This document shows positions 1 to 62,684 of a stretch of DNA of 64,000 bases, piece by piece. The DNA lies in NCBI GenBank assembly GCA_965223265.1, contig OZ244999.1, forward strand, positions 6,624,001 to 6,688,000, read 5' to 3'. The DNA comes from Planctomycetota bacterium (GTDB taxonomy: Bacteria; Planctomycetota; UBA8108; SXIK01). Under the pieces are notes generated by a model. The model did not search any database and was not told where the DNA came from. It was given only the letters and a program-made list of their open reading frames with translations. Within the stretch, counting starts at the first letter, position 1. Each line of letters begins with the position of its first letter. The position numbers were made by a program, and so were the translations under genes.

Positions 1-2841
1 TTCGTTGGCAGCGCTGAATTCCTCCAGAGTGAGACGCCGCACCCGTCCGTAGCCGACTGCCAGGGTGTACGCTTCATAGTTGCCGCGCGCGGAATCGTCT
101 TGAAAGAGCACCGGAAAACCTGGGTTGGTCCACTCTTCGGCACGCGCTCGCGCCAGTGGCGTGTCAGGAAGATACGCCAGCGGTTCGAGCGCGAACACGC
201 CGCTGAGGCGATCGTGCACCGATCTCACTTCAGGCAGATTCAGCGCTTCGGTAGGATCCAGACCGGTATCCGCGACGACCGTAAACGCATAGACAAAGCC
301 ATCGTCGGCGCGCACGCGCTTCATCGAACCGACGTAGTAATCACGGCTGGCGCGCAGTCCGATCAGCCGGTTGTACTCCTCGGGACCGAGCGCCGGGAAA
401 CGTTCGGGAAAGGTCGTAACCAAAAACTCCTGGTGCAGCTGATGGATCGACGTGTTTTGAAACGCCGGCGGCAACAGGTCGGCATCGTCGCGCGCTGGCA
501 CGACGAACTTGGTCTCCCGCTCTCCGGGCTTCGCGCCGCGCGATGCAATCGCCACATCGAGAAAATCCCGCTGGGTGCAAATACGCGGCAAGAAATCCAG
601 CGTCGAAGGCGCGCGAGACACATTGAGAAAGGAAATGATCTGATTCTCGGAGCGGTTCACAGCAACGAGGTCGAGGCGCCCGTCGCCGTTCACATCCCCG
701 GTCGTGGCATAGCGCGGCCCGGTCCGGGGCGGCTCGATCGTAGGTGTCTCAATGAAATAAAAGAGCGGCGTCCGAAACGTGCCGTCGCCGCGGTTGATGA
801 ACACAGTCAGGTTGAGCGAAAGCTCGTTGACGGTGACAATATCGAGGTGCCCATCACCGTTGTAGTCTCCGGAGGTCATCGTGTACGGCAAGCGAACCGG
901 GTAAGTGCGCACCGTCTCGAGCCGCATCGCGCCGCGGTTTTCGATGATGGCAAGTTCCGAGCTCGTTTCATTCACCGTCGCCAGATCCTCGTCACCGTCG
1001 CCATCCCAATCGCCGGCAATGACGAAGAACGGTCTTCCGAAAGGGTCGATCGAACCGATATGGGTCAGGGTCCCCAGCGGCGCGTTCTCCAGTATCTCAA
1101 CGCTTCCCGATTGATTTGCTGCCGCCAGATCCAAGTCGCCGTCACGGTCAAGATCGACGGCGACAACGCCGTTAAACCGGCCCGAAATCCTGATCGTCTC
1201 GCTGTTGGCGAACGTCCCATCGCCGCCGTTGCGATAGATGGTGATTGCCGAACCGCTGTTCGCGGTGACGATTTCCGGAAAGCGGTCACCGTCGAGGTCA
1301 GCGGAGATCGAGTAGAATGGATCCCGGCTGCCAAGGTACGTCTCTCGTGACGCAAAGCTCTGACCGTCGTAGTTAAGAAAGACTTCGATCTTGATGTCGA
1401 AAAGGAACGGGACCACGAAATCGAGCTGACCGTTCTGATCGAAGTCATCGACACTGGCCGCATTCAGATAGCCGTCCGACCTATCGGTGTAGCCGATCGA
1501 GAACGCTCCATTTCCGTCGTTTTCGGCGAGAGTGATGAGTCCGCCAGCTCCATGGCCCATGATGGCGTCCACGTCGCCGTCACCGTCGATGTCGCCGAGC
1601 GCCGGCGGGCTGTGCGGTCGGCCGCCGGCACCGTACGTCGTACTCACGAAACTCGTCTCTCGGCCGCTGACGAGGATTCCGAGCGCATCCGAACGCGTCT
1701 TGCCGGTCGCAATGTCAACACCACCGTCACCGTTCAGGTCGGCGATCGCGAGGCTCTGCGAAACGCCCTCGATCGGGAAACTGACGTGAGCTCGCAGTGA
1801 GCCAGATTCGTTGATGATGGCGGCGACTTCACGCGTCGGCAATCCGGCGACAACGTCCGTGTCACCGTCACCGTCGACGTCACCAAGTTCGAAGTGAGTC
1901 GCATCCAGGCGAAACACCGACGCTAAGGCCAACGATCGGTCGGAGCTTGACACCGAGATCACGTGGATACCTTCGCCGCCGAGGACGAGAAGTTCGGGCG
2001 CTTCGTCGCCGCTGAGGTCTGCGGCCCGCACCGCGCGGGCGTCGGCGGTGGCGACCGACTCCGCCCCCCGCTCGAAACCGCTCTCCGTGTTCCACAGAAC
2101 GGCTACCCGTCCGCCCTCAACCAGCGCGATGTCCGGGCGCCCGTCGCCGTCCAGGTCGGACGCCATCATCGCCGCCGGCACCCCTCCTGCGTCCACCGCC
2201 TCCGTCGCAAAACCACGCTCGGGCTGACGGCGCACGAGTGAGAGCTGAGTCGAGTCGGCGTGCGACACGATGATGTCCGTATCGCCGTCGGCATCAAAGT
2301 CGGCGGACGACATCAGGAGACCGCCGATCAGCGCCACCAGATCGGCGTCGCGCGGATACGTTCGTTCGCCGTCGTTCCAAACAAAAAAAACGCCCTCGGC
2401 CCCAAGGCTGGCCACGTCGAGCTCGCCGTCGGCATCGAAATCTCCCACACTGATCTCGAACGTATCCGCGCCAACACGGCGGTAGACGGGGGTGCCGAGA
2501 TCGCCGATCTCGTCTTGATAGAAGATGCCGATCGTGCTACCCGCGGGTCCGAGGCTGGCACTGAGGAGATCCTCCCGGCCGTCGCCGTCGAAGTCACGGG
2601 TTACGACGCGGCGCGGCAGACCGCGCTGCTGAAGCCGTGGCACCGAAAGACCGAACTGGAGTAAGTCCAGCTCGCACTCATCGGGGAACCCGTTGCCGTT
2701 GCAATCCTCGGACACCGAGCTCGAGACGTCGACGGTGTCGTCCGCGCCGTTGCCGTTGCAGTCGGCCGCAGAAACGAACGGAGCCGCCACGAAAAACAAC
2801 CCGAACACGGCGAAGTTGATATTGGCGCCGATGCGTAGCAA
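1..2841 (-). CDS. Secreted FG-GAP/VCBS repeat (beta-propeller) protein with DCNGNG-Cys repeats and a non-repeat C-terminal domain; 3' end lies outside the window
   Basis: Not in the ORF track because it runs off the edge. Manual translation from TTG at 2841 (GGAGG upstream): MLRIGANINFAVFGLFFVAAPFVSAADCNGNGADDTVDVSSSVSEDCNGNGFPDECE, then ~13-14 DxDGDGxxDL-type motifs (DFDGDGREDLL, DLDGDGRPDIA, DVNGDGRLDLV), ending ...GNYEAYTLAVGYGRVRRLTLEEFSAANE at base 1. Confidence 0.85.
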   Translation of the reverse strand, partial: MLRIGANINFAVFGLFFVAAPFVSAADCNGNGADDTVDVSSSVSEDCNGNGFPDECELDLLQFGLSVPRLQQRGLPRRVVTRDFDGDGREDLLSASLGPAGSTIGIFYQDEIGDLGTPVYRRVGADTFEISVGDFDADGELDVASLGAEGVFFVWNDGERTYPRDADLVALIGGLLMSSADFDADGDTDIIVSHADSTQLSLVRRQPERGFATEAVDAGGVPAAMMASDLDGDGRPDIALVEGGRVAVLWNTESGFERGAESVATADARAVRAADLSGDEAPELLVLGGEGIHVISVSSSDRSLALASVFRLDATHFELGDVDGDGDTDVVAGLPTREVAAIINESGSLRAHVSFPIEGVSQSLAIADLNGDGGVDIATGKTRSDALGILVSGRETSFVSTTYGAGGRPHSPPALGDIDGDGDVDAIMGHGAGGLITLAENDGNGAFSIGYTDRSDGYLNAASVDDFDQNGQLDFVVPFLFDIKIEVFLNYDGQSFASRETYLGSRDPFYSISADLDGDRFPEIVTANSGSAITIYRNGGDGTFANSETIRISGRFNGVVAVDLDRDGDLDLAAANQSGSVEILENAPLGTLTHIGSIDPFGRPFFVIAGDWDGDGDEDLATVNETSSELAIIENRGAMRLETVRTYPVRLPYTMTSGDYNGDGHLDIVTVNELSLNLTVFINRGDGTFRTPLFYFIETPTIEPPRTGPRYATTGDVNGDGRLDLVAVNRSENQIISFLNVSRAPSTLDFLPRICTQRDFLDVAIASRGAKPGERETKFVVPARDDADLLPPAFQNTSIHQLHQEFLVTTFPERFPALGPEEYNRLIGLRASRDYYVGSMKRVRADDGFVYAFTVVADTGLDPTEALNLPEVRSVHDRLSGVFALEPLAYLPDTPLARARAEEWTNPGFPVLFQDDSARGNYEAYTLAVGYGRVRRLTLEEFSAANE

Positions 2842-3090
2842 AAAACCCTCCCGCGGTGACGTGAATATGCCTCTTGTTCGCCCGACCAGGCGCACGACCC
2901 CCCACGAGTCTCTCGGCTCCCCCGTCCATTCGACAAGAGTGCATCGTACCGGATCAACGGCGCGTTTCCGAGTCGGTTTTGCCTCGGTACGGATCGACGC
3001 CGCGACGCAGCTGACACACCCGCTCAAGAAACGAATTCACGAACTAGCGCAAGAACCGTCACGCGGTCGGAGCCGTCGTCGGCGCGGTTA

Positions 3091-3252
3091 ACAGCCCGTT
3101 GAAAAAGTCATTCGGCCGAAGAAACTGGCCTCTTCACGCCCAGCTCGACCGCGTCAATACTCGAAAATCCCGAAGATTGCCTGCGTTTGCCGCGGCCGAT
3201 CTGGACGCGAAGAGACCAGTTTTCGGCTCGAAGCACTTTTTCAACAGGCTGT
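3091..3252. repeat. MITE-like foldback repeat, copy 1 (162 bp)
   Basis: Terminal IR ACAGCCCGTTGAAAAAGT / ACTTTTTCAACAGGCTGT, flanked by TA on both sides; homologous (inverted) to 32460-32643 and 60078-60259. Confidence 0.85.
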
Positions 3253-6200
3253 TAAGTGTGCGTTCAGCCTGTCAGCGATGCACTCAAGGTTTTCCGCCGC
3301 CAGAACCTCGTGGTGAGACCCCGCAACGGAAACAACCGTGACGCCCCCGGAAGCGACTTCGCCCCAGCCGAGATCGGGACGGTCGCGGTTGATCCATGCC
3401 ACCTCCTCGGCTCGGAAGAGCACAACCTGCCCGTCATAGATGCCCGGTCGATAGCGTTTTCGGGCCGGGCGTGTGACGCACTCGAAGAAGTGCTCGGCCT
3501 CGAGCTTCACCGGGAGACTTCGGCCGAGTCGGTGACACAACTCACCACCCGCAAGAAGCGCGAGACGGCGCAGACGCTGACGTGCGGCGCGCGCCGATGT
3601 CGTGAGATTGCCAACACCGCTTCGCAGCAGATACCCGAACTTCGCAGTCGGAGATAGCGCATCCAGTGCTTGCGCGTGCTGCTTCCAGTCCGTTCGGCGC
3701 AAAAACGCGCTCGGCAAACTCGTGTCCAGTACCGCGAGCAAAGACACTCCGCAGCCTCGGCTACGGAGTTGCCGAGCCATTTCGAGCGCGACGAGCCCGC
3801 CAAACGAGTAACCGCACAATCGGTACGGTTCAAGCGGAGGAACGCGCGTCACAAGCTCGTCGACGTAGAGCGCTGCGAGTGCCTCGACGGTTGCCGGTCG
3901 TGCGTCTAAAAATGCCCGCATCGGCGGCTGAACCGCAAGGACAGGAACGCCCTCCTCGAGACGTTTCGCCAACTCGACGTAGTGGTGAACGCGCCCCTTG
4001 CCGCAGTGAACACAAATGAGCGGCGATCGATCGCCCCCGTCGCGCAGCGGCACGAGGATCTCAGTCGACGACGAGCGCGATCTTGATCGAGCGGACGAAG
4101 CGGATGGAGGGGAGGATTGCGTGACATCGAGCGCCGCAGCCATCCCCTCCAGTGCGGGCGACTGAAACACGGAGGCCAATGACAGCTCCGCTCGGAACTC
4201 GCGCTTGACGTGCCGAACGAGCTCCAGCGCCAGAAGAGAGTGACCGCCAAGCTCAAAGAAGTCATCCGCTATGCCGACGCGCTCGACCCCAAGCAAATGA
4301 CACCAAATCGTCGCGAGCCGCCGCTCGGTCTCGCTCCGCGGCGGCTCGAACCGGCGCGCCCCAACGCGAGTACCGGCGAGTCCGCCCGAGCGGTCGACTC
4401 GTGTGCGGTCGCCGGTCTCGAGGTCGTCTGCCGAGTCGCAAATCGCGGGCAGTGCACGTCGGTTCACTTTCATGCTGGTTGTCAGCGGCAATGACTCGAG
4501 CTGGACGTAGTGCGACGGGATCATCACGGTCGACAGTTTCGTGCGCAGAAACTCGTCCAGTTGGCGCGATGTCGGGACGACGCCAGCTGCAGTGACGAAG
4601 TAGGCAGCGAGGCGTCCTCCATGTGCGTCTGGCCACAGACGAAGTGCCGCCGCATCGATCGATTCATGTTCGCAAAGCGCTTCTTCGATGGGGGCAACGT
4701 CGACGCGCTGGCCGCGCACCTTGACCTCGAGACCAAGTCGCTGGAGGACCTCGATGCCGCCGTCCGGACGCGCCCTGCCGTCGTCACCAGTGTTCAAGCT
4801 GCGCCGCGTGGACTTTGCTCGCGGCCTTTCCGACGCCGAGGAGCATTCCCCGCGTCCCAACCAAGCGTGAGGCGATGCCGCCAAGAATTCCGACTCGACG
4901 CAGATCTGGCCACGAATGTCGGTCTCGTCGCCGGTCGCATTTCGTAGGGACATGCGCACTCCTCTCACAGCTTCGCCAATCGAGAGTCGCTCGCGTCGCA
5001 CGTCGCTGGTGTGACTGTACCGTGCCCAGCTGACGAGCGAGCACTCCGTGGAACCGTAGAGGTTAAACAGTGTGCAGTCGCTTGCCGTCACCGCACGGAA
5101 AACATCGAAGTCTGCACGCGTCGCTGGTTCTCCGCCAAGGACCACGGCACGCAGCGAACTTTGAACCAGATCCGCCCCATCGCGAGACCCTAACGCTGTT
5201 TGCTCGCGATCGGCGGACGATCGTGAACTCCACAGCGCGCGGAAGACCGTCGGCGTTGAGTGAAACACCGTCACATTGGCGTTCGAGATCCATGCCTCGA
5301 GTTCCGTCGCGCCATCTGTGTCGAAGCCCCAAGGTAGTAGCTCTGCGCCAGCGAGGAGGGCGCCGAAGGTATCGAGAAGAAACGCGTCGAAAGTGTAGGC
5401 TGCGAGGAGAAGGAAACGGTCGCTCGGACGCGCGTCGAGCATGCGCTGGTAGTTGTCGACGTGGTGTAGGAGCGCTCGCTCGCTTTGCACCACTGCTTTC
5501 GGCGCCGCGGTCGATCCGGATGTATACAACAGGTACGCGGGTCGATGGTCGCGATGGTCGCGATGGCCAGCCACCGCCTCAGCCGACGTGCTCGCTTCAA
5601 GAATTTGGTCGCAGATGATGACTGTGCGCCCCGCCCCAGCCGCTTGGCGCGCCAGCGCCTCGTGCGCGGAGTCAGCGATGACGAGCTCGGCGTCGGCGTC
5701 GGAAAGTATGGCGGCGAGACGCTCACGGGGCTCCTTTGTGTGCATCGGCACGAACGTCTTGCCCGCTTTGACGACCCCTAGAAGAACCGCTACCATCGGC
5801 GCGTCGTGCTCAAGAAGGAGCGCCACGCGGCCGTCGCGATCACCAAGGCGATCATGAACTGCAGCGGCAACGGCTGTCGAGCGACGATCCAGCTCGTCGT
5901 ACGACCAACGGTAGCGCGGACTCCTGACCGAGCCGCGGGGACCGTGTTTTCGCACGACCTCCGCGAATCTCTCGGCGATCGACGCTTGGCCGCACGGCCG
6001 TTCATTCTTGTTTGCTGCAACCGCCGCCAAGGGTTGGTTCTGCGAAGTCGACGCGAGAGACGCGATCGCGACACTGGAATCCACCACCGCCGCACAAAGC
6101 AGTCTCTGGTATTGAGCGAGAAGCCATTCCACGGTCTCAGGCTCGTAGCGCTCGCGGCGAAATCGGCAGACGCACTCAAGTCCGGCGCTGGTGTGTTCGA

Positions 6201-51861: not shown

Positions 51862-52539
51862 ATGTCCGAGTCGAAAACGAATCTCAGCTACGACGAGTGG
51901 TTGGACTACTGTTTCGACCGCCCGGTGACCAACCCGCAGTGGTACTACAGCACGGACCCTGAACTCGACTGGTACGAACCCGACCCCACGGAAATCACGA
52001 AGTTCATGTCTCGACTCTTCGCCAATGCGGGCGACCTCGTCGAGCGCTACACATTGGAACAGGTGAACGAGGGCCTGTATTTCATTTGCAGTCATGGGTC
52101 AGAGTACTTCCTTACGGCGCGAGAGTGCCAAGACAAGGAGCTGCAAGCGGAGTGGGTGCTGTCGATCCTGCTCCTCTATCGGGATCTCTTCTCTAGAGTT
52201 TGCACCGACCACTTCGGGCACCTTGACGCGGGTCCCGAGAAGCCGAGTCCGCTCAACGCTACGTGCTACATGTTCTGGGATCTTGACTGCCTCGAAGGGG
52301 CGGCGATGTTCCCCGGAGAGGAACACCTCGTCGATCCGATCTTCGAGGTGTTGGAAGGCGCCTTGCGCCTGCGTTCCGTTGCATGCCGAGAGAGCGCCTT
52401 GCACGGACTGGGACACCTCCAGACGTTTCACAAGAAACGCGTGCGACGGATCATCGGTGATTTCCTGAACGGAAACCGCAACCTTCCGCCGGAGTTAACG
52501 GACTACGCTCTAAGCGCCCGGAGTGGATGCGTACAGTGA
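51862..52539 (+). CDS. Hypothetical protein
   Basis: 225-aa ORF; CYMFWD and ESALHGLGH motifs look conserved; purine-rich RBS upstream. Confidence 0.75.
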   Translation: MSESKTNLSYDEWLDYCFDRPVTNPQWYYSTDPELDWYEPDPTEITKFMSRLFANAGDLVERYTLEQVNEGLYFICSHGSEYFLTARECQDKELQAEWVLSILLLYRDLFSRVCTDHFGHLDAGPEKPSPLNATCYMFWDLDCLEGAAMFPGEEHLVDPIFEVLEGALRLRSVACRESALHGLGHLQTFHKKRVRRIIGDFLNGNRNLPPELTDYALSARSGCVQ

Positions 52540-52630
52540 CGAGCCGTTCAGCTCTCTGGTTCGGCTGCGAATCCATGGCCGAAATCGGCGACCAAGCTCA
52601 GCGCACGCGACCTCTTTCGGCAACGCAAAC

Positions 52631-54589
52631 ATGATCACAAGAGCAACCGAAGCCCAGATCTCGGAGTTCGCACAGACGCAGCGCCGCCTGATTCAACTCG
52701 AGCGCGAAGCAGAGATTCACGAGACGAGCGAACTGCAGGGCTCACTTTCGGCCCAGGAGCTCCAGCGCCGCGGGCTTTGCTTGTTACAACTCAACGTGAC
52801 GGGCGATCGCGTTGGACTCGGTGGTCATTCGTTGATCGATCTCGCACCGACGACGGGAATGCTGGTCCACCATCGCATTGGCGTGGGCGACATCGTCACG
52901 ATTCGCCCCCAACGCGCCAGACCCAATGAAACACCGAAACGCTCCTCGTCGATTCGTCGCCCAAAAGCATCCCCGTCGTCGGGGGCACTCACTGGGGTCG
53001 TGTCTCGGGTCACTGAATCTGGTCTCACTGTTGCCATCGATGAGTGGCCAGATCACCTGCCAGAAGCGCCACTGCGCCTCGACCGGGTGGCGAACGAAGT
53101 CACGTTTCGCCGGCTCGAGGAAGTCCTTGATCGTCTCGAACGTTACCGAGGTGGTCCGGCAGACCGACTCCTTGAAATCGCTTTCGGCGCCCAGCCCCCT
53201 GACCAGAACGACGCCGTGCAGACAGACGAGCTTGAAGGGTGTCTCGACACGGCGCAGCGCGACGCCGTACGATTCGCGATGTCGTCCGGGGACATCGCCT
53301 TGATCCACGGCCCTCCAGGAACAGGCAAAACCACGACACTGGTTGAGCTCATTCACCAGATGGTGGCCAGCGGACAAAGTGTGCTCGCCACGGCACCGTC
53401 GAATATCGCCGTTGACAACCTCGTAGAGCGTCTCAGCGATCGCGGTCTGGCCGTCGTTCGTATAGGACACCCCGCGCGCCTACTGCCAAGTGTCACCAGC
53501 CGCTCGCTTGCCGAGCTCGTTGAAAAATCGGACGGCATGAAGATTGCGGCTGACGTGCGTCGAGAGATCGATCAAGCATACCGGGATCTCCGGCGCGTGC
53601 GATATGGTCGCGAACGCGGTCGGATAAGACAGGAGATCCGACGACTGCGCGAGGAAGTACGCGAACTCGAGAAATTCGCTGTGCGCCAGGTCGTGACATC
53701 CGCCGACGTCGTCCTAAGTACGACGATCGGGGCCGCGGACCGTTCCGTCGCTGGCATCGACTTCGATCTCGTCGTGATCGACGAAGCCGCGCAATCTCTC
53801 GAAGTCGCGGCGTGGATTCCGCTCCTGAAGGGCCGACGAGCTGTTCTGTGTGGCGATCATCAACAACTGCCGCCGACGATTCGCTCGCAAGAGGCAGCGA
53901 CACGGGGGTTTTCGACGACGCTCTTCGAGCGCCTTCACGAACAACATGGTAGCGCGATCACACGAATGCTGACGAGGCAGTACCGCATGCATCAACGCAT
54001 CATGAACTGGTCGTCGGTCGAGCTCTATGGAGGTCGCGTTGAAGCCGACGAAACCGTACGAGAGCATCTCCTGATGCATCTTCCGGACTGCGCTCAGACG
54101 TTTGAGCTGCAGACCCCCGTTCTGCTGATCGATACGGCAGGGTGCGACCTCGAGGAAGAAACGGTCGAGCACACAAGCTCGAGGTCAAACCGAGGCGAAA
54201 CCGATATCGTTACGGCACACGTGCAACGACTGATCGAAGCTGGCGTTCCGGCGCACAACATCGCTGTGATCACCCCCTATAACGCGCAGGTGGCCCAGCT
54301 ACGAAATGCTCTACGTCCAAAGTGGCCGGAGCTCGAAATCGGCAGCGTCGATGGATTCCAAGGTCGAGAGAAGGAAGCTATCGTCCTTTCACTGGTGCGC
54401 TCGAATCGCACCGGTGACGTTGGATTTCTATCAGATGAGCGCCGCATGAATGTTGCTGTCACGCGCGCCCGGCGACACGTTGCGATCATCGGCGACAGCG
54501 CCACCGTCTCCAGTCACCCGTTTCTCTGTCGGCTGGTGGAGTATTGCCAAGCCCACGGAGAGTACCGAAGCGCGTGGGAATACCGATAG
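52631..54589 (+). CDS. Superfamily 1 helicase, IGHMBP2/Upf1-like
   Basis: HGPPGTGKTT, APSNIAVDNL, IDEAAQ, GDHQQLPP, QYRM, ITPYNAQV, DGFQGREK, RRMNVAVTRAR. Confidence 0.93.
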   Translation: MITRATEAQISEFAQTQRRLIQLEREAEIHETSELQGSLSAQELQRRGLCLLQLNVTGDRVGLGGHSLIDLAPTTGMLVHHRIGVGDIVTIRPQRARPNETPKRSSSIRRPKASPSSGALTGVVSRVTESGLTVAIDEWPDHLPEAPLRLDRVANEVTFRRLEEVLDRLERYRGGPADRLLEIAFGAQPPDQNDAVQTDELEGCLDTAQRDAVRFAMSSGDIALIHGPPGTGKTTTLVELIHQMVASGQSVLATAPSNIAVDNLVERLSDRGLAVVRIGHPARLLPSVTSRSLAELVEKSDGMKIAADVRREIDQAYRDLRRVRYGRERGRIRQEIRRLREEVRELEKFAVRQVVTSADVVLSTTIGAADRSVAGIDFDLVVIDEAAQSLEVAAWIPLLKGRRAVLCGDHQQLPPTIRSQEAATRGFSTTLFERLHEQHGSAITRMLTRQYRMHQRIMNWSSVELYGGRVEADETVREHLLMHLPDCAQTFELQTPVLLIDTAGCDLEEETVEHTSSRSNRGETDIVTAHVQRLIEAGVPAHNIAVITPYNAQVAQLRNALRPKWPELEIGSVDGFQGREKEAIVLSLVRSNRTGDVGFLSDERRMNVAVTRARRHVAIIGDSATVSSHPFLCRLVEYCQAHGEYRSAWEYR

Positions 54590-55461: not shown

Positions 55462-55920
55462 ATGAAACTTCGCCTGCACACCGACTTCGCCCTCCGCGTC
55501 CTTCTTTATCTCGCGTACGCTCACCGCAAAGCGACCGTCGACGAAATCGCATCGGCGTACGGGATCTCGCGTGACCATCTCGTCAAAGTCGTGCAGCGGT
55601 TAGCAACGCATGGCTTCGTGAAGACACATCCCGGCCGCGGCGGCGGCGTCACGCTGGTGGGTGACGCGGAATCCATCAGCGTGCAGGAAGTCGTCGAACA
55701 GCTCGAGGGACGACACGGTGTGCTCGAGTGCGTCGAGACTCCCGAGGTTTGTCCGATGGAGCCTGGATGTCGTCTCCGCAAGCTCCTCATGCAAGCTGAG
55801 AAGGCGTTCTACGACACACTCGGCACTCAATCGCTGGCGGATCTAACAGGCCGCCGCTCACAAACCGGAGGTCTTCGGAACCTGGAAATTTCGCCAACGG
55901 CGCGTCAAGCAGAGCGTTGA
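55462..55920 (+). CDS. Rrf2-family transcriptional regulator, NsrR-like
   Basis: MKLRLHTDFALRVL, HLVKVVQRL, GRGGG, three Cys (ECVETPEVCPMEPGC). Confidence 0.9.
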   Translation: MKLRLHTDFALRVLLYLAYAHRKATVDEIASAYGISRDHLVKVVQRLATHGFVKTHPGRGGGVTLVGDAESISVQEVVEQLEGRHGVLECVETPEVCPMEPGCRLRKLLMQAEKAFYDTLGTQSLADLTGRRSQTGGLRNLEISPTARQAER

Positions 55921-56196
55921 AACGCGGCGCGTCTCCGGGCATTTGAGGAGCTAACTGCTGAGTCCCACAAACTCTGGCTCGTGAGCAGCGACGAGTCTCA
56001 GATTCACTGACCCGGAAACGCCCCGGCATACCCCGCCGAACCGACCGTCCGATCATACCCCGCCTACCCCGCGCCCCCCGTTCGACGCTGCGCCCTGGAC
56101 CTTCGCTCGACTCCTCGCCTCACCTCGAGTAAAGAGGGGAGCGGAGAGACCGGTGTTGGTGCACTTCTCTCCGCAAGTCCCCGTACGGAGAGAGCG

Positions 56197-56865
56197 ATGC
56201 TACCCCATTTGGTCAACGCGATACAGAGCTATGGCGAAGCTGTTCGCCGCCGTGAGATCCAGCCGACCTGTAACCGCTGCCCGAATTGCAGCGGGGAGCC
56301 AGATCGGTTCCGCTACCGCGGTCACCGAGAGCGCGTGTTCCTCGTTATCGTCAGGCGTCTGGTCGAACCTGTCCTGTCGCTTCTGAGTCGCTGGAAGTGT
56401 CCTCTGTGTAAGCGCTCCTTCACGCTCTACCCGCCCTTCGCGCTGCCGGGGAAACGCTACGTTCGCGACTGCGTTTTCGATCACGCTCGGCGCTACCTCC
56501 AGATCGACGAGCTTTCGTATCGCGAAGCCGTCAAGGTCGAACACATGCCCGTCTTCCACGAGGGTGACGACAGGGGAGCGATCGACGAGCGCAGCCTCGC
56601 GCACTCAACACTTCATCGTTGGCTTTCGTTCTTTCGCTCTCTCAACGCCACGCTCCTGGAGGCTCTCCGCCTCATCCGAGAGCGCTCGGCGAGGTCCGAC
56701 ATCTTCCGCAAGGTCTTCGCCGTCCGTCCAGCCAAGTACCGAAGCGAATCACGGCGGGACACTCTCGTCGCGGCACTTCGAGCTCTCTCGATCGACCAGG
56801 TGTTCCGTTCCCTCTTCGGCCGATCGATCTTCCCCGACTTGGCAACCTCCGCAGCCTGGGCGTGA
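56197..56865 (+). CDS. Transposon-associated zinc-ribbon/HTH protein (DUF6431-like)
   Basis: CPNC...RWKCPLCKRSFTLYPPFALPGKRY; HSTLHRW. Confidence 0.75.
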   Translation: MLPHLVNAIQSYGEAVRRREIQPTCNRCPNCSGEPDRFRYRGHRERVFLVIVRRLVEPVLSLLSRWKCPLCKRSFTLYPPFALPGKRYVRDCVFDHARRYLQIDELSYREAVKVEHMPVFHEGDDRGAIDERSLAHSTLHRWLSFFRSLNATLLEALRLIRERSARSDIFRKVFAVRPAKYRSESRRDTLVAALRALSIDQVFRSLFGRSIFPDLATSAAWA

Positions 56866-56905
56866 GCGAGAATCACGCCTCGCTCGCCCCATGCGAGGTG
56901 TGATC

Positions 56906-58468
56906 ATGAAAGCGAAAGATCTCGATTGGGCTATCTTCTGGGCGGCTCTTCTCCAGCCCGTCGTCATCGGCGAGGTGCCGGAGGAGGAAGCCGCGCGATT
57001 TCTCCGCGAGCTCGCCAAAGAAGAGCGCATCTTTCCCGACGGATCGCGACGCAAGCCGGCTCTTTCGACCCTGAGGCGGAAGCTTCGCATCTATCGCGAG
57101 GAGGGCTTCGAGGGTCTTGCCCGCAGGCCGCGAAGCGATCGCGGGAAACCGCGTGCCCACGGCAAAGAGCTCGTCGAGAAAGCCGTCGAGCTGAAGCGTG
57201 ATCAGCCACTGCGCTCCCACTTCGCCATCAACAAGTTCCTCCAGGCTCAGCACGGAAAGACCATTCCGCGTTCGACCCTCTTCCGCTACCTCAAGATCGC
57301 CGGCGCGACGCGGCTGAAGCTCGGTGTCGAGAGGAGGAAAGTCCGGAAACGCTGGACTCGTGACTCCACCCATGCCCTCTGGGTCGGCGACTTCGCCGAT
57401 GGACCCTACGTGCTGCACGACGGCGAAGTCGTCCCCACCTTCCTCTGTGTTCTCATCGACTGCTACAGCCGCTCGCTCGTCGAGGGGCGCTACTACCTTC
57501 GGCAAAATCTCGAGGTCTTGATCGACTGCTTGCTGCGGGCGTGGGCCAAGCACGGTGCTTCGGACGAGCTCTATGTCGATCAGGCGAAGGTCTATATCTC
57601 CAAAGCGCTCAAGGCGGCATGCCTTGCCGTTGTCACCCGGCTCATCCATCGCGGCAAGGGCGATCCGCCACCGGGTGGTCTCGTCGAACGACTCATCGAG
57701 ACGATACAGGGCCAGTTCGAGGCCGAGGTCAGAGCCGGCGAGATCCTCACTCTCGACTCGCTCAACGGAAGCTTCGATTCCTGGAAGACCGTGGCCTACC
57801 ACCGCCAGGTCAACACCGAGACCGGCGAAACACCCGAGGCACGAGCCGAGGCCGGCCTCAAACGGCCTATCCGACACGTCGACATTCAGCGCGTCACCGA
57901 GTTCTTCATGTGCCGCGAGACGCGGCGCGTTCACCCGGACTTCTCCGACGTCCAGCTCGATCGCCGCTTCTATCGCGTCGACAAGAGTCTGCGCGGTGAC
58001 AAGGTCGAAGTCCGCTACGATCCCTTCTCCGCGCCCGACACGGTTCTCATCTACTCCAGCAACGAAGAGTACCTCGGAAAGGGCGTCCTTCACGAGCGCG
58101 AAGAGGGCGAGGACGCCGGTGCTCCCGCCCCTCCCGCCAAAGCGAAGCACAACTATCTGGAGCTTCTTCGCCGTGAGCACGACGAGGAGCTCAAGAAGCG
58201 CGCCCAGGGGATCGACTACCGTCGTGTCATCGCCTCTCGCCAGTGGCCCTTCACCGACTTCGCATGCCTTCTCGGCCGGCTCATGGGGCGCAAGGGCGCC
58301 CTCTCGAGCTTCACCGCCGAGGAGCTCGAGGAACTCAAGAAGTTCTACAACCGTACTCCCAGCCTCACCGAAGTCCTCTTGCTGAGGGCCTTCGAGAAGG
58401 CTCCGGAGAAATCCATTCCCTACATCGCCTACGAGCTTCAACGACTCGCAGGCAGAAAGGAGGACTGA
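56906..58468 (+). CDS. DDE integrase/transposase (rve core plus Mu-type C-terminal domain)
   Basis: N-terminal HTHs (STLRRK, RSDRG), WVGD, IDCYSR, LYVDQA, GLVERLI, VEVRYDP; GAGGTG RBS before ATG at 56906. Confidence 0.9.
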   Translation: MKAKDLDWAIFWAALLQPVVIGEVPEEEAARFLRELAKEERIFPDGSRRKPALSTLRRKLRIYREEGFEGLARRPRSDRGKPRAHGKELVEKAVELKRDQPLRSHFAINKFLQAQHGKTIPRSTLFRYLKIAGATRLKLGVERRKVRKRWTRDSTHALWVGDFADGPYVLHDGEVVPTFLCVLIDCYSRSLVEGRYYLRQNLEVLIDCLLRAWAKHGASDELYVDQAKVYISKALKAACLAVVTRLIHRGKGDPPPGGLVERLIETIQGQFEAEVRAGEILTLDSLNGSFDSWKTVAYHRQVNTETGETPEARAEAGLKRPIRHVDIQRVTEFFMCRETRRVHPDFSDVQLDRRFYRVDKSLRGDKVEVRYDPFSAPDTVLIYSSNEEYLGKGVLHEREEGEDAGAPAPPAKAKHNYLELLRREHDEELKKRAQGIDYRRVIASRQWPFTDFACLLGRLMGRKGALSSFTAEELEELKKFYNRTPSLTEVLLLRAFEKAPEKSIPYIAYELQRLAGRKED

Positions 58469-59259
58469 TGTTCACCACCCATTTCAAGATGACGACGCAG
58501 CCCTTTCTCGAGCGCGCGCCCGTCGAGCAGATTCTTTCCGACGAGCGCATCACCCAGGGACTCGCTCGACTGGAGTACCTCGCCAAGTCGGGCTCGATCG
58601 GCCTGGTGACCGGACTCACCGGGGTGGGGAAGTCGTCTCTGGTGAAGCTCTTCGTGCGCTCGCTGAGCCGCAACCTCTACGACCCGATCTATCTCTCGCT
58701 GACCTACGTCGGGGCAAACGGCATTCTGAAGCTCCTGGTTTCCAGCCTCGGCGAGCAGCCCCGCCGTGGCAAGGAGCGGCTCTTCCTCCAGATCCTGGAT
58801 CGCGTCGGGGCGAACGAGCACACGACAATCCTCGTCATCGATGAAGCGCACCTGCTTCCTTCGGAGTCGCTCACCGATCTGAGACTTCTGGTCAGCTCCG
58901 GACTCGAGGACGGCCCGCCATTGAAGATCCTCCTCAGCGGACAAGAGACCCTGAGAAAGGAGCTTACCCGAGCGCGCCACGCCGATCTCACGCATCGGCT
59001 CAGCGTGCGCTACCACGTGCCGCCGCTCAGCAAGGAGCAGACGGTCGAGTACATCGACTTTCAGATGCGCGCAGCCGGCGCCTCGCAGAAAGTCTTCGAG
59101 CCTGAAGCGAAGTCGCTCATCCACGACTACTCAAGCGGCGTGCCGCGGCGCATCAACAACATCGCCACCGCCTGCCTCATTCAGGCCGCGAGCAAGAACG
59201 TCCAGAAGATCTCCGAGGCGCTCGTCAACGACACCGCCCCCGAGTTCCATCTGCCCTGA
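58468..59259 (+). CDS. ExeA/TnsC-like AAA+ ATPase
   Basis: GLTGVGKS, LVIDEAH, LLSGQ, SGVPRRIN; TGATG coupling with GGAGG RBS. Confidence 0.9.
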   Translation: MFTTHFKMTTQPFLERAPVEQILSDERITQGLARLEYLAKSGSIGLVTGLTGVGKSSLVKLFVRSLSRNLYDPIYLSLTYVGANGILKLLVSSLGEQPRRGKERLFLQILDRVGANEHTTILVIDEAHLLPSESLTDLRLLVSSGLEDGPPLKILLSGQETLRKELTRARHADLTHRLSVRYHVPPLSKEQTVEYIDFQMRAAGASQKVFEPEAKSLIHDYSSGVPRRINNIATACLIQAASKNVQKISEALVNDTAPEFHLP

Positions 59260-59278
59260 GAACGGAGACTGACGCGCC

Positions 59279-59572
59279 ATGTTCCACAAGACCCTGATGC
59301 CTCGAGTCAACGACTTCGCCGAGTATCCTGAGCTCGCCGTTTTGATGACCCTCGCGACGAACCTCGAGATCGCCCTGTTCGCTCTGAACGCCGCGTACCC
59401 CGATCTCGACTTCGACTACACGCAACGCTCCTCCTACACCGAGCAAGACGCCTATCTCGCCGCCTTGGGCGCTCAGCTGCGAGCGCTCCAGATCGTCCTC
59501 GAAGAGTATCTCGAGAGCCTGCAACGAATCCGATATTTGAAGGCGCCGAGCGGTGGAGGTGGCGTCGCATGA
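59279..59572 (+). CDS. Small helical hypothetical protein inside the transposon
   Basis: GGAGA RBS; ATGA overlap with the next gene. Confidence 0.7.
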   Translation: MFHKTLMPRVNDFAEYPELAVLMTLATNLEIALFALNAAYPDLDFDYTQRSSYTEQDAYLAALGAQLRALQIVLEEYLESLQRIRYLKAPSGGGGVA

Positions 59573-59886
59573 CAGGACGATTCTCCGGCAAGCTCCTGCG
59601 GTCGTTGAGAAACGATATACCGATCGCGTGGCTCCTCGATCTGCTCGGCGTCCCCGCGAAAATCTCCGAGGGCTACGTGCGCTTCCTCTGTCCGCGGTGT
59701 CGCGAATTCAACACCGCGACGAAGGCGTCCACCAACCTCGCGCGTTGCTTTCGCTGCGAGACGAACTTCAACCCGATCGACCTGGTCATGATCGTCAAGC
59801 GGCTGAATTTCGTCGACGCCGTCGAGTTCCTCGCCGAGCTCCGCGATCGTCGCGGTGACGCTCGCGCCACGCCTCGCCCTTCGTGA
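59569..59886 (+). CDS. CHC2/DnaG-type zinc-finger domain protein
   Basis: FLCPRC...ARCFRCETNFNPIDLV...FVDAVEFL; GGAGG RBS. Confidence 0.8.
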   Translation: MTGRFSGKLLRSLRNDIPIAWLLDLLGVPAKISEGYVRFLCPRCREFNTATKASTNLARCFRCETNFNPIDLVMIVKRLNFVDAVEFLAELRDRRGDARATPRPS

Positions 59887-59891
59887 TTCCC

Positions 59892-59925
59892 CGGGTCGTC
59901 GTGCCGTCCGGGACACGACGACCCG
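59892..59925. terminator. Perfect 12-bp hairpin after the last transposon gene
   Basis: CGGGTCGTCGTG-N10-CACGACGACCCG; no clear U-tract. Confidence 0.5.
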
Positions 59926-60077
59926 CGCCTTCTCGCCTCGCAAATCGCATCTCGCACCCGCGAATCAGCACCATGCCATTTAATCTGGGATTTCCGCGCC
60001 AGATACTGTGGGACTTAGCAGCTAACTAAGCCAGCCATTTCGTCTTGCCGCGAGGCGTTCTCGCCGTCATTTTTTTA

Positions 60078-60259
60078 ACAGCCTGCCTGAGAAAGTGCTC
60101 CGAGCCGAAAGCTGGTCTCGTCGCGTCCAGATCGGCCGCGGCAAACGCAGGCAATCTTCGGGCCCTCTTCTTTCGGCTCTGATGGCGAGTAATGACGCGG
60201 CCCGTCTGGGCGTGAAGACGCCAGTTTCTTCGGCCGAATGATTTCTTCAGGCGGGCTGT
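60078..60259. repeat. MITE-like foldback repeat, copy 3 (182 bp)
   Basis: ACAGCCTGCCTGAGAAAGT ... ATTTCTTCAGGCGGGCTGT; highly similar to 32460-32643. Confidence 0.88.
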
Positions 60260-60412
60260 TGAGCACGCTTCTTCTCAACCTCCGCCCGAAGAGCTTCACA
60301 ACGATCACGGAAGAACGACTCCCAATCAAAAACCGCGCTCGAGTACCACCCGAACGCGGCGAGATTGAACTGAGTCCGAATCGGATCTATTCGCGGAGAC
60401 AGCCGGTCACAT

Positions 60413-61095: not shown

Positions 61096-62684
61096 GGCAC
61101 ATCTCACGCTGCTTGCGGTCGGTGTTGACGCTGGCCATCGACTCGGATCTCGGCTTTGTAGGAACGAGCGAGAACGTCCCAGGCATTGTCCCACCGAGTG
61201 CTTTGGAGAAGACTTCGAAGCGTCAGAATCGCCTGTCCGCCGCGTAGCGTCCAACGCATGCCGGACTGCTTGAGCCGCTCGCTCACGAGGGTCTTGCACG
61301 CGGCCTCTACCACGCCGCTTCCGATCGGCAAGCACGCTTCCTTGTAGGCGTGGTATTCCATTCCATTTCGCATCGAACGGAAATATTTCAGTGCGGCTGT
61401 CAACGTCTTACGAGCTTTGCCGTCAGCCTTGTCCCGTCGATACCGCACAGCACGGATGATTTTGTCGGCCCCCTGGGGATCCTCCTTCAGTGTGGTTCTC
61501 CACGACTGGAAGAATGCCCGGGCTTCCGGAGTTTCAGTCCCGTAGACCGCATCGGCGGCTTCCTTCAGATGCGCTGCAGCGTGATAGAAGTCGAGGATTT
61601 CGACTCCGCAACCGTCTCCAAGTTCCTGCAAGAACTCCCAATTGTCCGGAGCACCGTCGGCGATCTTCACCACGGTAAGGTCGGGACGTTGCTCCATCGC
61701 CCAGGTGAACTCCGCCTCCAACTGCGCCTTCAGAGTTCGCTTCTTGCTCTCTGGCATCCTCGCGAAGCGAACCGTCGAGATTCGCTTGCCGTCCTTGTCC
61801 AGGTACGTCACCGTCCCGCAGCTTGCCTCGCGATAACCGTTCTTGTTGTTCGGATCATGCTGCACCTCCTCCTTCTTCAGTGGCACGTGTACGCCGTCGA
61901 GGGAAACGGCGATGACGGAAGCTTCGGTCGGCACGCGGTCCTGGCTGCGAAGGGTTTCCTCCCAATCCAATCGGTGCGCCTCCCAATCCTCCGAGAGAAG
62001 TTTTGGTAGTCGATCCAAACTGCTGCTCGACGGAGCCATGCCACCAAATTCAGCAATGATGCTCGCGGCGTCACTCGGAGGAATTTCGGCCACCATGGTC
62101 GCCATGATCCGTGCCGCTCGCGGGGTCCACGCCCCCTCGACAATGCCGCTTCGCAATTCCAGGGGGCAGACCGAAGGGCCTCCGCCGATGGGTTGGTAGA
62201 CGTTCCTTTCGACCTTCATCGATCCAGACTGCCCAACGTACGTCTGCTCGGCGCGAAACGCTTTGCGGTGGCGGACGCCGTCCACCCGGATGTACTTGGC
62301 CTCCACGTCGTGTCGAACGAGATCCTCGGCGAGCAACTCCGTCTCACACACGGACATCAGACGGTGAACTTCCCGCTCGTGCTCCTCGAAGTCCCCACAC
62401 TCGCCGATCGGTTGCGACCGGTGCTCGCGAAGATAGTTCCGCAATGCTTCGAAGGCAGGGGTATCGAGCGCGTCGTCATCGATGTAATCTCTCTTCATCT
62501 TGGGCATCCTTTCGTAGTCGAACACTTTTTTGCGAGCGTCCTTCTACCAAAGGCTCTGCCCATTTCATCGAAAATTCATCGACACGCCCTGCTTCCGCGT
62601 TTCGCACTGCGACCAATTTGTCACGAAGCAGGGCGTTCGTCATCGTAAGTCCTTATGCGATCATCAAATGCGAGATGGCCACCC
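61096..62684 (-). mobile_element. ISKra4/ISLre2-like insertion sequence (ends approximate)
   Basis: Short imperfect IR cores GGCACATCTCAC / GCGAGATGGCC; no TSD found; splits a gene. Confidence 0.65.
61104..62525 (-). CDS. Transposase, ISKra4/ISLre2 (UPF0236)-like
   Basis: VSLDGV, IADGAPDNW, LDFYHA, PIGSGVVEAACK, RLKQSGMRW; start could be the ATG at 62507. Confidence 0.9.
   Translation of the reverse strand: MFDYERMPKMKRDYIDDDALDTPAFEALRNYLREHRSQPIGECGDFEEHEREVHRLMSVCETELLAEDLVRHDVEAKYIRVDGVRHRKAFRAEQTYVGQSGSMKVERNVYQPIGGGPSVCPLELRSGIVEGAWTPRAARIMATMVAEIPPSDAASIIAEFGGMAPSSSSLDRLPKLLSEDWEAHRLDWEETLRSQDRVPTEASVIAVSLDGVHVPLKKEEVQHDPNNKNGYREASCGTVTYLDKDGKRISTVRFARMPESKKRTLKAQLEAEFTWAMEQRPDLTVVKIADGAPDNWEFLQELGDGCGVEILDFYHAAAHLKEAADAVYGTETPEARAFFQSWRTTLKEDPQGADKIIRAVRYRRDKADGKARKTLTAALKYFRSMRNGMEYHAYKEACLPIGSGVVEAACKTLVSERLKQSGMRWTLRGGQAILTLRSLLQSTRWDNAWDVLARSYKAEIRVDGQRQHRPQAA

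Follow-up and report, generated by a model that had tools for sequence, protein, structure and literature searches.

Which kind of mobile element carries a DDE transposase and an AAA+ ATPase in one operon with three further genes, and which of those genes belong to its machinery? The question is raised by positions 55956-60020 of the window, by which we mean the whole stretch of 64,000 nucleotides (nt) analysed here, from contig OZ244999.1 of a Planctomycetota bacterium. An initial annotation of this DNA had described there a complete transposon with TG..CA ends and a GCTAAC duplication, taken as the marks of a recent insertion, with an ExeA-like ATPase beside the transposase and with neither resolvase nor cargo. 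We propose that the element is an active insertion sequence (IS) of 4,065 base pairs (bp) belonging to a widespread and apparently unnamed family, with a conserved four-gene operon core and the mechanism set out below, a reading that we consider likely.

Boundaries, copies and insertion sites

The element is a recently active, autonomous insertion sequence. A search of its own genome (9.18 megabases (Mb), one contig) with the element returned 13 matches, ten of which span positions 1-4065 of the query exactly, the remaining three being short, partial and confined to the orf5 region. All ten full copies are flanked by exact 6-bp direct repeats and all ten repeats are different (AATCGC, TCTATA, GCTAAC, GTTTGG, CTTTCG, CCTACC, GTTTTG, TCCAGC, CTTATT and CCGACC), GCTAAC being the repeat found on either side of the copy in the window. 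Eight of the ten copies are identical and the other two share a single T>C change at the equivalent of window position 57556, and therefore the variant copy has itself moved. Four public sequencing runs, which come from at most two samples of one study and are possibly the source data of the assembly, each contain a contig that is exactly 4,065 bases long and matches 55956-60020 at every base. These contigs break exactly at the element ends and reach a word depth of 99, 46, 122 and 48, as compared to 2.6, 4.7, 10.7 and 2.7 in the left flank, which is roughly ten to forty times as much. No contig across an empty site was seen in the four runs, and contigs cannot show absence. The initial description of the ends, of the duplication and of a recent insertion is therefore borne out by ten copies with their own duplications, and so is that of a complete transposon encoding a DDE transposase together with an AAA+ ATPase of ExeA/MuB-like type; among the five element products no resolvase or TnsA family was matched in Pfam or the curated models, and no cargo is present.

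The element starts with TGCTGAGTCCCACAAACTCTGG, finishes with CCAGATACTGTGGGACTTAGCA and is occupied by five co-oriented open reading frames (ORFs), orf1, tnp, atp, orf4 and orf5, whose products are given below in amino acids (aa). Its features are as follows.

55950-55955, no strand: left 6-bp target-site duplication, GCTAAC, from the sequence and from the exact 6-bp repeat of every one of the ten genomic copies.
55956-55977, + strand: left terminal inverted repeat, 5'-TG..., with an AGTCCCA core at 55961-55967; the same core lies at the tips in three other genomes.
55994-56000, + strand: left subterminal AGTCTCA core, a putative second transposase-binding site in direct orientation to the terminal core.
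56029-56072, + strand: a group of three direct TACCCCGC repeats (first bases 56029, 56056 and 56065) in the interval from the left end to orf1; a putative protein-binding or regulatory region.
56197-56865, + strand: orf1, a 222-aa DUF6431 zinc-ribbon protein with CxxC motifs at 28-31 and 68-71 and a helical C-terminal half, assigned by Pfam and by its relatives.
56906-58468, + strand: tnp, a 520-aa DDE transposase with HTH_32, an rve core and a Mu-type C-terminal barrel, assigned by Pfam and profiles.
58468-59259, + strand: atp, a 263-aa AAA+ ATPase (AAA_22; ExeA/MuB-like), assigned by Pfam and profiles.
59279-59572, + strand: orf4, with a 97-aa product that falls into no known family; according to a profile over 160 related loci it is an accessory gene specific to one clade.
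59569-59886, + strand: orf5, a 105-aa stand-alone primase-type zinc-binding domain (C41, C44, C60, C63) without catalytic domain, assigned by Pfam, profile and fold.
59986-59992, - strand: right subterminal AATCCCA core, with one mismatch to AGTCCCA, from the comparison of end sequences.
59999-60020, - strand: right terminal inverted repeat, ...CA-3', with an AGTCCCA core at 60009-60015.
60021-60026, no strand: right 6-bp target-site duplication, GCTAAC, from the sequence and the comparison of genomic copies.

The two ends of the element form an imperfect 22-bp inverted repeat, with 18 of 22 positions matching by manual count. Each end holds two AGTCYCA-type cores in direct orientation, one at positions 6-12 and one some 25-40 nt inside, and multiple transposase sites per end are a feature of the ends of Mu, Tn7 and IS21. 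This arrangement is shared with three other genomes, in which multi-copy elements of 3,693-4,321 bp have left tips of the form TCCTA(C/A)GTCC... and right tips resembling ...GGGACTTAGCA. The end sequences of the three elements also show a second core of the AGTCYCA type, some 25-30 nt in from either end. The right tip ...GGGACTTAGCA is near-identical in relatives from other phyla and always ends in CA; the left tip is TG in the window element as opposed to TC in the three relatives. Among 23 copies in those three genomes the duplication measures 6 bp in 15, 7 bp in three and 5 bp in one, and is absent in four, so that over all 33 copies it is 6 bp in 25, 7 bp in three, 5 bp in one and absent in four. 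Loci L018, L020, L072 and L076 have no matching duplications, which could reflect recombination between copies or intramolecular events. Furthermore, one copy in a metagenome-assembled genome (MAG) of the Desulfatiglandales (locus L075) measures 5,393 bp as compared to 3,716 bp and carries orf5 in two pieces about 1.6 kilobases (kb) apart, and therefore something has inserted into orf5.

No common target sequence was found among the ten 6-bp duplications. In silico removal of the element shows that about five of the ten insertions have hit long ORFs whose guanine-cytosine (GC) content by codon position is gene-like. The copy in the window follows an Rrf2-family regulator gene, 35 bp beyond its stop codon (55918-55920). 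The suggestion that the element selects its targets is therefore not upheld, as its insertion sites share no sequence and about half of them interrupt gene-like ORFs. GC skew places the origin of replication at about 7.95 Mb and its terminus at about 3.52 Mb, with seven copies oriented with replication and three against it. There is thus no strict replication-strand bias, and ten copies cannot exclude a mild one.

Gene content of the relatives and of the wider superfamily

The transposase is, by profile comparison, a distant relative of the MuA/TnsB type of DDE enzymes. The solved structure closest to its profile is ShCAST TnsB (E 4e-11), and its predicted catalytic triad D167, D230 and E266, which is invariant among relatives, aligns with the three conserved acidic positions of TnsB. 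These residues are numbered on a 525-aa form that would start at 56891; the start at 56906 is preferred because GAGGTG lies 6 nt upstream of it and because it fits the N-termini of relatives. The C-terminal Mu-transpos_C domain (PF09299) scores 32.7 bits, above its cut-off of 21.7, and the best phage-family match is phrog_310, a transposase of transposable phages (E 9e-29). Curated NCBIfam models all score far below their cut-offs, at 104.3 bits against 224 for IS481, 37.7 against 250 for ISNCY_2, 28.5 against 160 for IS3 and 21.8 against 160 for IS21; the IS481 model (NF033577) is the best of them (E 8e-30) and covers residues 59-315 only, and E values are 1e-9 for ISNCY_2 and 1.1e-4 for the IS21 IstA model NF033546. 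A frameshift fusion between ORF1 and the transposase was also considered, the tnp frame being open from 56564, and was rejected because in AT-richer relatives the open frame begins at the tnp start codon.

The first base of atp is the A of the tnp stop codon, the two genes overlapping in TGATG, and orf4 and orf5 overlap in ATGA. The atp product matches AAA_22 (E 1.7e-17), with a Walker A motif at G49-S56 and a Walker B motif at D125-E126 whose residues are invariant among relatives. Against solved structures its profile finds MuB (8xvb, E 4e-7) before TnsC of ShCAST (E 5e-4) and of Vibrio (VchTnsC, E 1e-3), and phrog_296, a DNA transposition protein, is matched at E 3e-25. In contrast to this, the IstB model NF038214 gives 13.3 bits against a cut-off of 200 (E 0.051), and the Pfam families IstB_IS21 and TniB show no match at E<=1.

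A search with the transposase scored 8,000 candidates, of which 1,281 proteins lie at E<=1e-3, the best 120 of them being 54-75% identical to the query and mostly carried by contigs of 2-6 kb. Such short contigs are expected, because a repeat breaks assemblies. We examined 160 loci, namely the best 80 of 219 relatives from species-representative genomes and the best 80 of 358 from metagenomes, which together hold 138 distinct transposases, and counted the presence of a gene only where the locus had room for it. Their labels include Planctomycetota, Thermodesulfobacteriota, Chloroflexota, Bacteroidales, Gammaproteobacteria and others; the archaeal labels of L026 and L030, which are 3.5-3.7-kb contigs binned into MAGs, are not taken as evidence of archaeal hosts. 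Within this sample every one of the 114 relatives that offer 750 bp or more has orf1 upstream of tnp, all 112 with room for atp have it behind tnp, and orf5 follows atp in 62 of the 64 with more than 700 bp behind atp, at a median distance of 24 nt. No other conserved ORF of the element was found among the relatives.

The fate of orf4 is different. It has no match in Pfam, NCBIfam or PHROG, a pattern scan of metagenomes found no relatives, and a word-based search of a large protein collection returned two other orf4 proteins only. An iterated profile recovers orf4 in 7 of the 160 loci, in two positions. In the three relatives nearest to the window element (transposases 74-75% identical) it separates atp from orf5, as it does in the window, and in four relatives at 59-63% identity it is found downstream of orf5, once as two tandem copies. 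On this distribution orf4 is a clade-specific add-on and not core machinery, and the conserved core is a set of four predicted genes, encoding a DUF6431 protein, a DDE transposase, an AAA+ ATPase and a primase zinc-binding domain. The initial annotation had suggested that all five genes may be machinery and had asked for their conservation among homologues; four genes are kept, orf1 and orf5 across phyla, and orf4 is not.

Beyond these relatives lies a wider group. Transposases of about 30% identity occur in 136 plasmid records, three of which were inspected. Those of Streptomyces and Cupriavidus carry, in this order, a DUF6431 gene, a transposase gene with rve and Mu_C domains and an AAA_22 ATPase gene; no primase-type finger gene is present in either cassette, and their small extra ORFs have no Pfam match and do not resemble orf4. 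No DUF6431 gene appears in the Thermobacillus record, the gene table of which is incomplete. A 2026 preprint mentions in passing, without characterising it, a 15-copy DUF6431, DDE and AAA cassette in Clostridium sp. JS66 (bioRxiv 10.64898/2026.08.16.744336), and a 2025 article lists, likewise without characterisation, a DUF6431 gene beside a DDE transposase gene in Ruminococcus gnavus (PMC12323340). On this comparison the window element is a clade within a DUF6431-DDE-AAA superfamily, defined by the added gene for a primase zinc-binding domain. The literature searched gave passing mentions of DUF6431-DDE-AAA cassettes and no description of the four-gene family, in agreement with the initial suggestion of an undescribed system. 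Database names are likewise generic: the sole NCBI/nr name among the listed relatives is 'DDE-type integrase/transposase/recombinase', a name also carried by the three inspected plasmid records, and JGI names read 'transposase InsO family protein', 'putative transposase' or 'transposase', none of them the name of an IS family.

Closer to the host, the transposase was found at E<=1e-60 in 3 of 400 other genomes sampled from the same phylum and in neither of two genomes of the same family; the distribution is therefore patchy, with the reservation that draft assemblies frequently lack repeats. The genome itself holds transposase and ATPase fragments at about 2.465-2.479 Mb (L196) and about 0.809 Mb (L197), decayed relatives of the element. 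Three orf5 paralogues in these two regions are 47-62% identical, two of them with an in-frame TGA, and look like older dead related copies. To the left of the element in the window lie the Rrf2-family regulator gene (55462-55920) and a superfamily-1 helicase gene (52523-54589; AAA_11/AAA_12, SMUBP-2-like), both unrelated to it, the insertion here being intergenic. To its right, 60098-60271 has a word depth of 483-1,487 as compared to 2-8 beside it in all four runs and contains an imperfect inverted repeat (60109-60143 and 60193-60227; 35 nt, 74% complementary), and looks like a highly repeated unit resembling a repetitive extragenic palindrome (REP) or a miniature inverted-repeat transposable element (MITE). 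A 473-aa ORF further on (61104-62525, - strand) has no Pfam match at E<=0.001.

Two zinc proteins and the proposed mechanism

ORF1 is assigned to DUF6431, a zinc ribbon that resembles the N-terminal DNA-binding part of ISL3 transposases. The window protein itself scores below the cut-off (E 2.8e-4; 21.1 bits against 26.6), and the family is matched by 21 of 21 relatives (best E 4.3e-9), four of which also touch the ISL3 transposase zinc ribbon. The distant DUF6431 partner in Cupriavidus also scores with HTH_28 and HTH_Tnp_ISL3, which supports a DNA-binding role for ORF1. The initial suggestion that ORF1 could be a TniQ-like target selector finds no support in our searches. No element protein matches the TniQ Pfam family at E<=1, the ORF1 profile meets chance zinc-finger matches only among PDB sequences (best E 1.7), and its AlphaFold model finds no TniQ and nothing at E<=0.001 among PDB folds (best E 0.4), this fold result being a weak negative as the model is moderately confident (predicted local distance difference test (pLDDT) 72). 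The same model found nothing among viral models at E<=0.001.

A candidate site for ORF1 lies before its own gene. The three copies of TACCCCGC, an 8-mer that occurs 87 times forward and 73 times reverse in the whole genome, fall within 44 bp. Among the upstream regions of relatives (89 after removal of redundancy), examined without a prior pattern, the commonest hexamers are CCCGCC, ACCCCG and CCCCGC, with CCCGCC present in 60 of the 89. A degenerate form of the left-end motif occurs 5.68 times per kb in the 250 bp before orf1, as compared to 0.84 in coding sequence and 0.59 on the opposite strand. We regard the left-end repeats as protein-binding or regulatory sites as a lead, not a proof; judging from its architecture, ORF1 most likely binds DNA sequence-specifically, with the TACCCCGC repeats as its site.

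ORF5 matches Zn_ribbon_DnaG at E 1.5e-4 (22.0 bits, cut-off 24.9), as do 27 of 27 relatives (best E 6.6e-9). Over residues 1-91 its profile matches the isolated zinc-binding domain of Bacillus stearothermophilus DnaG (1d0q) along the entire length, and this domain is also the top fold match of its structural model (pLDDT 88.9; template modelling (TM) score 0.64/0.66, root-mean-square deviation 2.7 Å, probability 1.00), followed by Aquifex primase, T4 primase and Twinkle, with no TniQ among these matches. At E<=1e-10 an exhaustive profile search yielded 475 representative clusters, and among the best 150 of these all lengths fall within 87-245 aa. No TOPRIM domain was found in the longer relatives (185-474 aa), which show only PF01807 or a foreign rve domain. 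The initial reading of an isolated CHC2 finger thus stands as to a primase zinc-binding domain without catalytic domain and has to be amended as to its nature, since the ligands CPxC...CxxC form a C4 site, with Cys at the second zinc ligand where primases have His, and the protein is, over its full length, a homologue of the DnaG zinc-binding domain. The link to the replisome or to single-stranded DNA that had initially been suggested for it is putative. With 23% identity between the two, ORF5 is an old relative of the zinc-binding domain in the host's DnaG and not one captured recently. Across phyla its relatives are 45-64% identical to the window protein, with 22 invariant columns, and it is the second best conserved small protein.

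We propose a model in which the transposase would recognise two AGTCYCA-containing sites at each end, cut at the terminal ...CA-3' and, by the chemistry expected of the DDE family, join the element to the target with a 6-bp stagger, as the duplications record. The ATP-bound ATPase would supply non-specific target DNA and activate the transposase in the manner of MuB, TnsC and IstB, as its homology suggests, and targets are taken without sequence specificity, genes included. ORF1 most likely binds the left-end TACCCCGC repeats, either marking the left end or controlling expression. ORF5, whose gene lies a median 24 nt behind atp, most likely acts with the ATPase, which is the least certain step of the model; alternatively, its place may be the gapped product of strand transfer, at which host priming and repair have to step in. 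The primase-derived domain is of interest because the element has no TnsA-like nuclease or resolvase, yet ten of ten copies are simple insertions with intact duplications. One tentative elaboration, to which we give a low probability, is that ORF5 is a transposon-encoded adaptor linking the strand-transfer complex to DNA synthesis, recognising single-stranded gaps or GTC-containing ends and recruiting or mimicking host primase at the ATPase-bound target. If true, such an adaptor would let a Mu-type transposase without second-strand nuclease or resolvase finish copy-in transposition as simple insertions, and would constitute a previously unknown handover of a DDE transposon intermediate to the replisome.

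Three other explanations have to be weighed against this model. In a simpler one, transposase and ATPase alone would transpose, ORF1 would be a left-end repressor like InsA of IS1, and ORF5 a dispensable modulator or host-interaction gene. In L025 and L032, the two exceptions among the 64 relatives, and in L052, which has less room after atp, an unrelated ORF of 116-120 aa without Pfam match occupies the position of orf5, the distant plasmid cassettes have no finger gene, the preprint describes a 15-copy cassette of three genes in Clostridium, the TACCCCGC repeats sit where the operon promoter should be, and relatives carry obvious extras, such as the antisense gene for a 202-aa SEC-C-motif/TPR protein, apparently a passenger, before orf1 in the 4,321-bp element of Desulfoferrobacter suflitae (L039 2698-3306, - strand). 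The replacement ORFs, at 3583-3933 in L025 and 3293-3655 in L052, belong to a small subclade and may be functional substitutes for orf5. On the other side stand the presence of orf1 in every relative with room, even in cassettes whose transposase is about 30% identical, and the retention of orf5, tight behind atp, with its invariant columns across phyla; the retention of genes in a 3.7-kb element therefore suggests that each gene earns its place, and we think the simpler explanation rather unlikely. Membership of a known family, IS21, IS481, ISNCY or Tn552, with passenger genes is suggested by the IS481 and ISNCY_2 matches, by tips of TG...CA, more than one site at each end and a helper ATPase, as in IS21, and by 6-7-bp duplications as in Tn552; with all curated models far below their cut-offs, no IS family name among the relatives and no resolvase, it appears very unlikely. 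A Tn7- or Tn5053-like system, in which ORF1 as a TniQ-like selector would direct transposase and ATPase to particular sites and all five genes would be machinery, would account for the distant relationship to TnsB and TnsC and for a strictly conserved zinc-ribbon protein with a helical domain in the operon, as TniQ/TnsD proteins also carry zinc-binding motifs. We hold it to be highly improbable in view of the failure of Pfam, sequence and (weakly) fold searches to find TniQ, ten unrelated duplications with about half of the insertions inside gene-like ORFs, duplications of 6 bp and not 5 bp, the lack of TnsA and resolvase, and an orf4 that is not conserved.

Several observations weigh against the four-gene insertion sequence that we prefer. 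The unrelated ORF in the place of orf5 means that the zinc domain is replaceable and ORF5 therefore not universal, and the seven-to-three orientation of the copies gives no support to a fork-directed role for it. The degenerate left-end pattern was written after viewing four elements, and at least two copies of it lie within 250 bp upstream of orf1 in only 37 of 81 relatives. A scan of the element found no sigma-70-like promoter, other promoter types being outside that scan. The rve match of the transposase (31.2 bits) falls just below the Pfam cut-off of 32.6, and the best curated model for the ATPase is TIGR03015, a PEP-CTERM/ExeA ATPase (120.8 bits against a cut-off of 324.5), a family for which we know of no role in transposition. 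What ORF1, ORF5 and the ATPase do is inferred from homology and architecture, and the word 'unnamed' goes by generic database names and the literature only.

Systems that pair a transposase with an AAA+ helper (Mu, Tn7, CRISPR-guided transposons and IS21) have become the best understood models for the regulation of transposition, and are a basis of tools for genome insertion. The family described here is a very compact relative of 3.7-4.1 kb, active in a sequenced genome and spread over many phyla, and its two conserved zinc proteins are absent from all of these model systems. The first belongs to a domain of unknown function, DUF6431, which also stands beside transposases in Streptomyces and Cupriavidus plasmids and, as the preprint and the article mention, in a Clostridium and in Ruminococcus gnavus; the second is a primase zinc-binding domain standing alone, and may have to do with the way in which host replication or repair receives the intermediates of strand transfer. 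A role for either would annotate many generic genes, among them the 475 ORF5 clusters and the 1,281 transposase relatives of the 8,000 scored. Finally, the element explains breaks in assemblies, many of its relatives lying on contigs of about 4 kb.

Comparison with known systems

With Mu and the D3112/B3 group of transposable phages the element shares a homologous DDE transposase with a Mu-type barrel and a homologous AAA+ target-DNA activator, encoded by adjacent coupled genes, as well as several transposase sites per end and the absence of a target sequence preference. It differs in its size of 4 kb, with five small-to-medium ORFs and no phage structural gene, and in its DUF6431 and primase zinc-binding proteins, which Mu is not known to encode. 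Mu, Tn7-like elements and Tn5053 make 5-bp target duplications, as opposed to 6 bp in the window element. The Tn7-like, Tn5053 (Tn402) and CRISPR-associated transposons resemble it in their TnsB-type transposase, in TnsC, to which the ATPase of the element shows a distant similarity, and in small zinc-containing partner proteins within the operon. Its ATPase, of 263 aa, is about as small as type V-K TnsC (276 residues in the matched ShTnsC chain), and in the comparison of profiles MuB was nonetheless the better match. These transposons are set apart by TniQ, TnsA and the TniR resolvase, none of which was matched in the element, by the length of the duplication, and by site-specific or guided targeting, no sign of which is visible in this compact, cargo-free insertion sequence.

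IS21 is alike on paper, a compact insertion sequence in which a DDE transposase gene (istA) is followed by a coupled AAA+ helper gene (istB), with TG...CA tips and repeated sites at each end. The scores against the IstA and IstB models lie far below their cut-offs, the window ATPase is of ExeA/MuB (AAA_22) type as opposed to the DnaC-like IstB type, and two further genes are conserved; the initial statement that this is not a classical IS21 element is thereby confirmed. IS481, whose model scores less than its cut-off, has a single transposase gene in place of a four-gene core. Tn552 of Staphylococcus encodes a transposase (p480), an ATP-binding protein (p271) and the BinL resolvase and makes duplications of 6-7 bp. 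In its general properties, a transposase with an ATP-binding helper and the length of the duplication, it is similar; judged by its general description it differs, since resolvase, res site and cargo are absent from the window element, whose inverted repeats are much shorter. The unnamed DUF6431-DDE-AAA cassettes show the same gene order, with about 30% identity in the transposase and no primase zinc-binding gene. For ORF5 the counterpart is the DnaG zinc-binding domain, with which it aligns over the full length and shares the fold, and from which it differs in lacking the TOPRIM and helicase-binding domains, in a Cys for a His ligand and in being encoded by a transposon.

The element is not a member of IS21, IS481, the Tn7/Tn5053 group or the Mu phages. 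By its predicted proteins it resembles the group of Mu, Tn7, Tn552 and IS21 in its manner of working, with a transposase and an ATPase in partnership, and its pair is homologous to those of Mu and Tn7.

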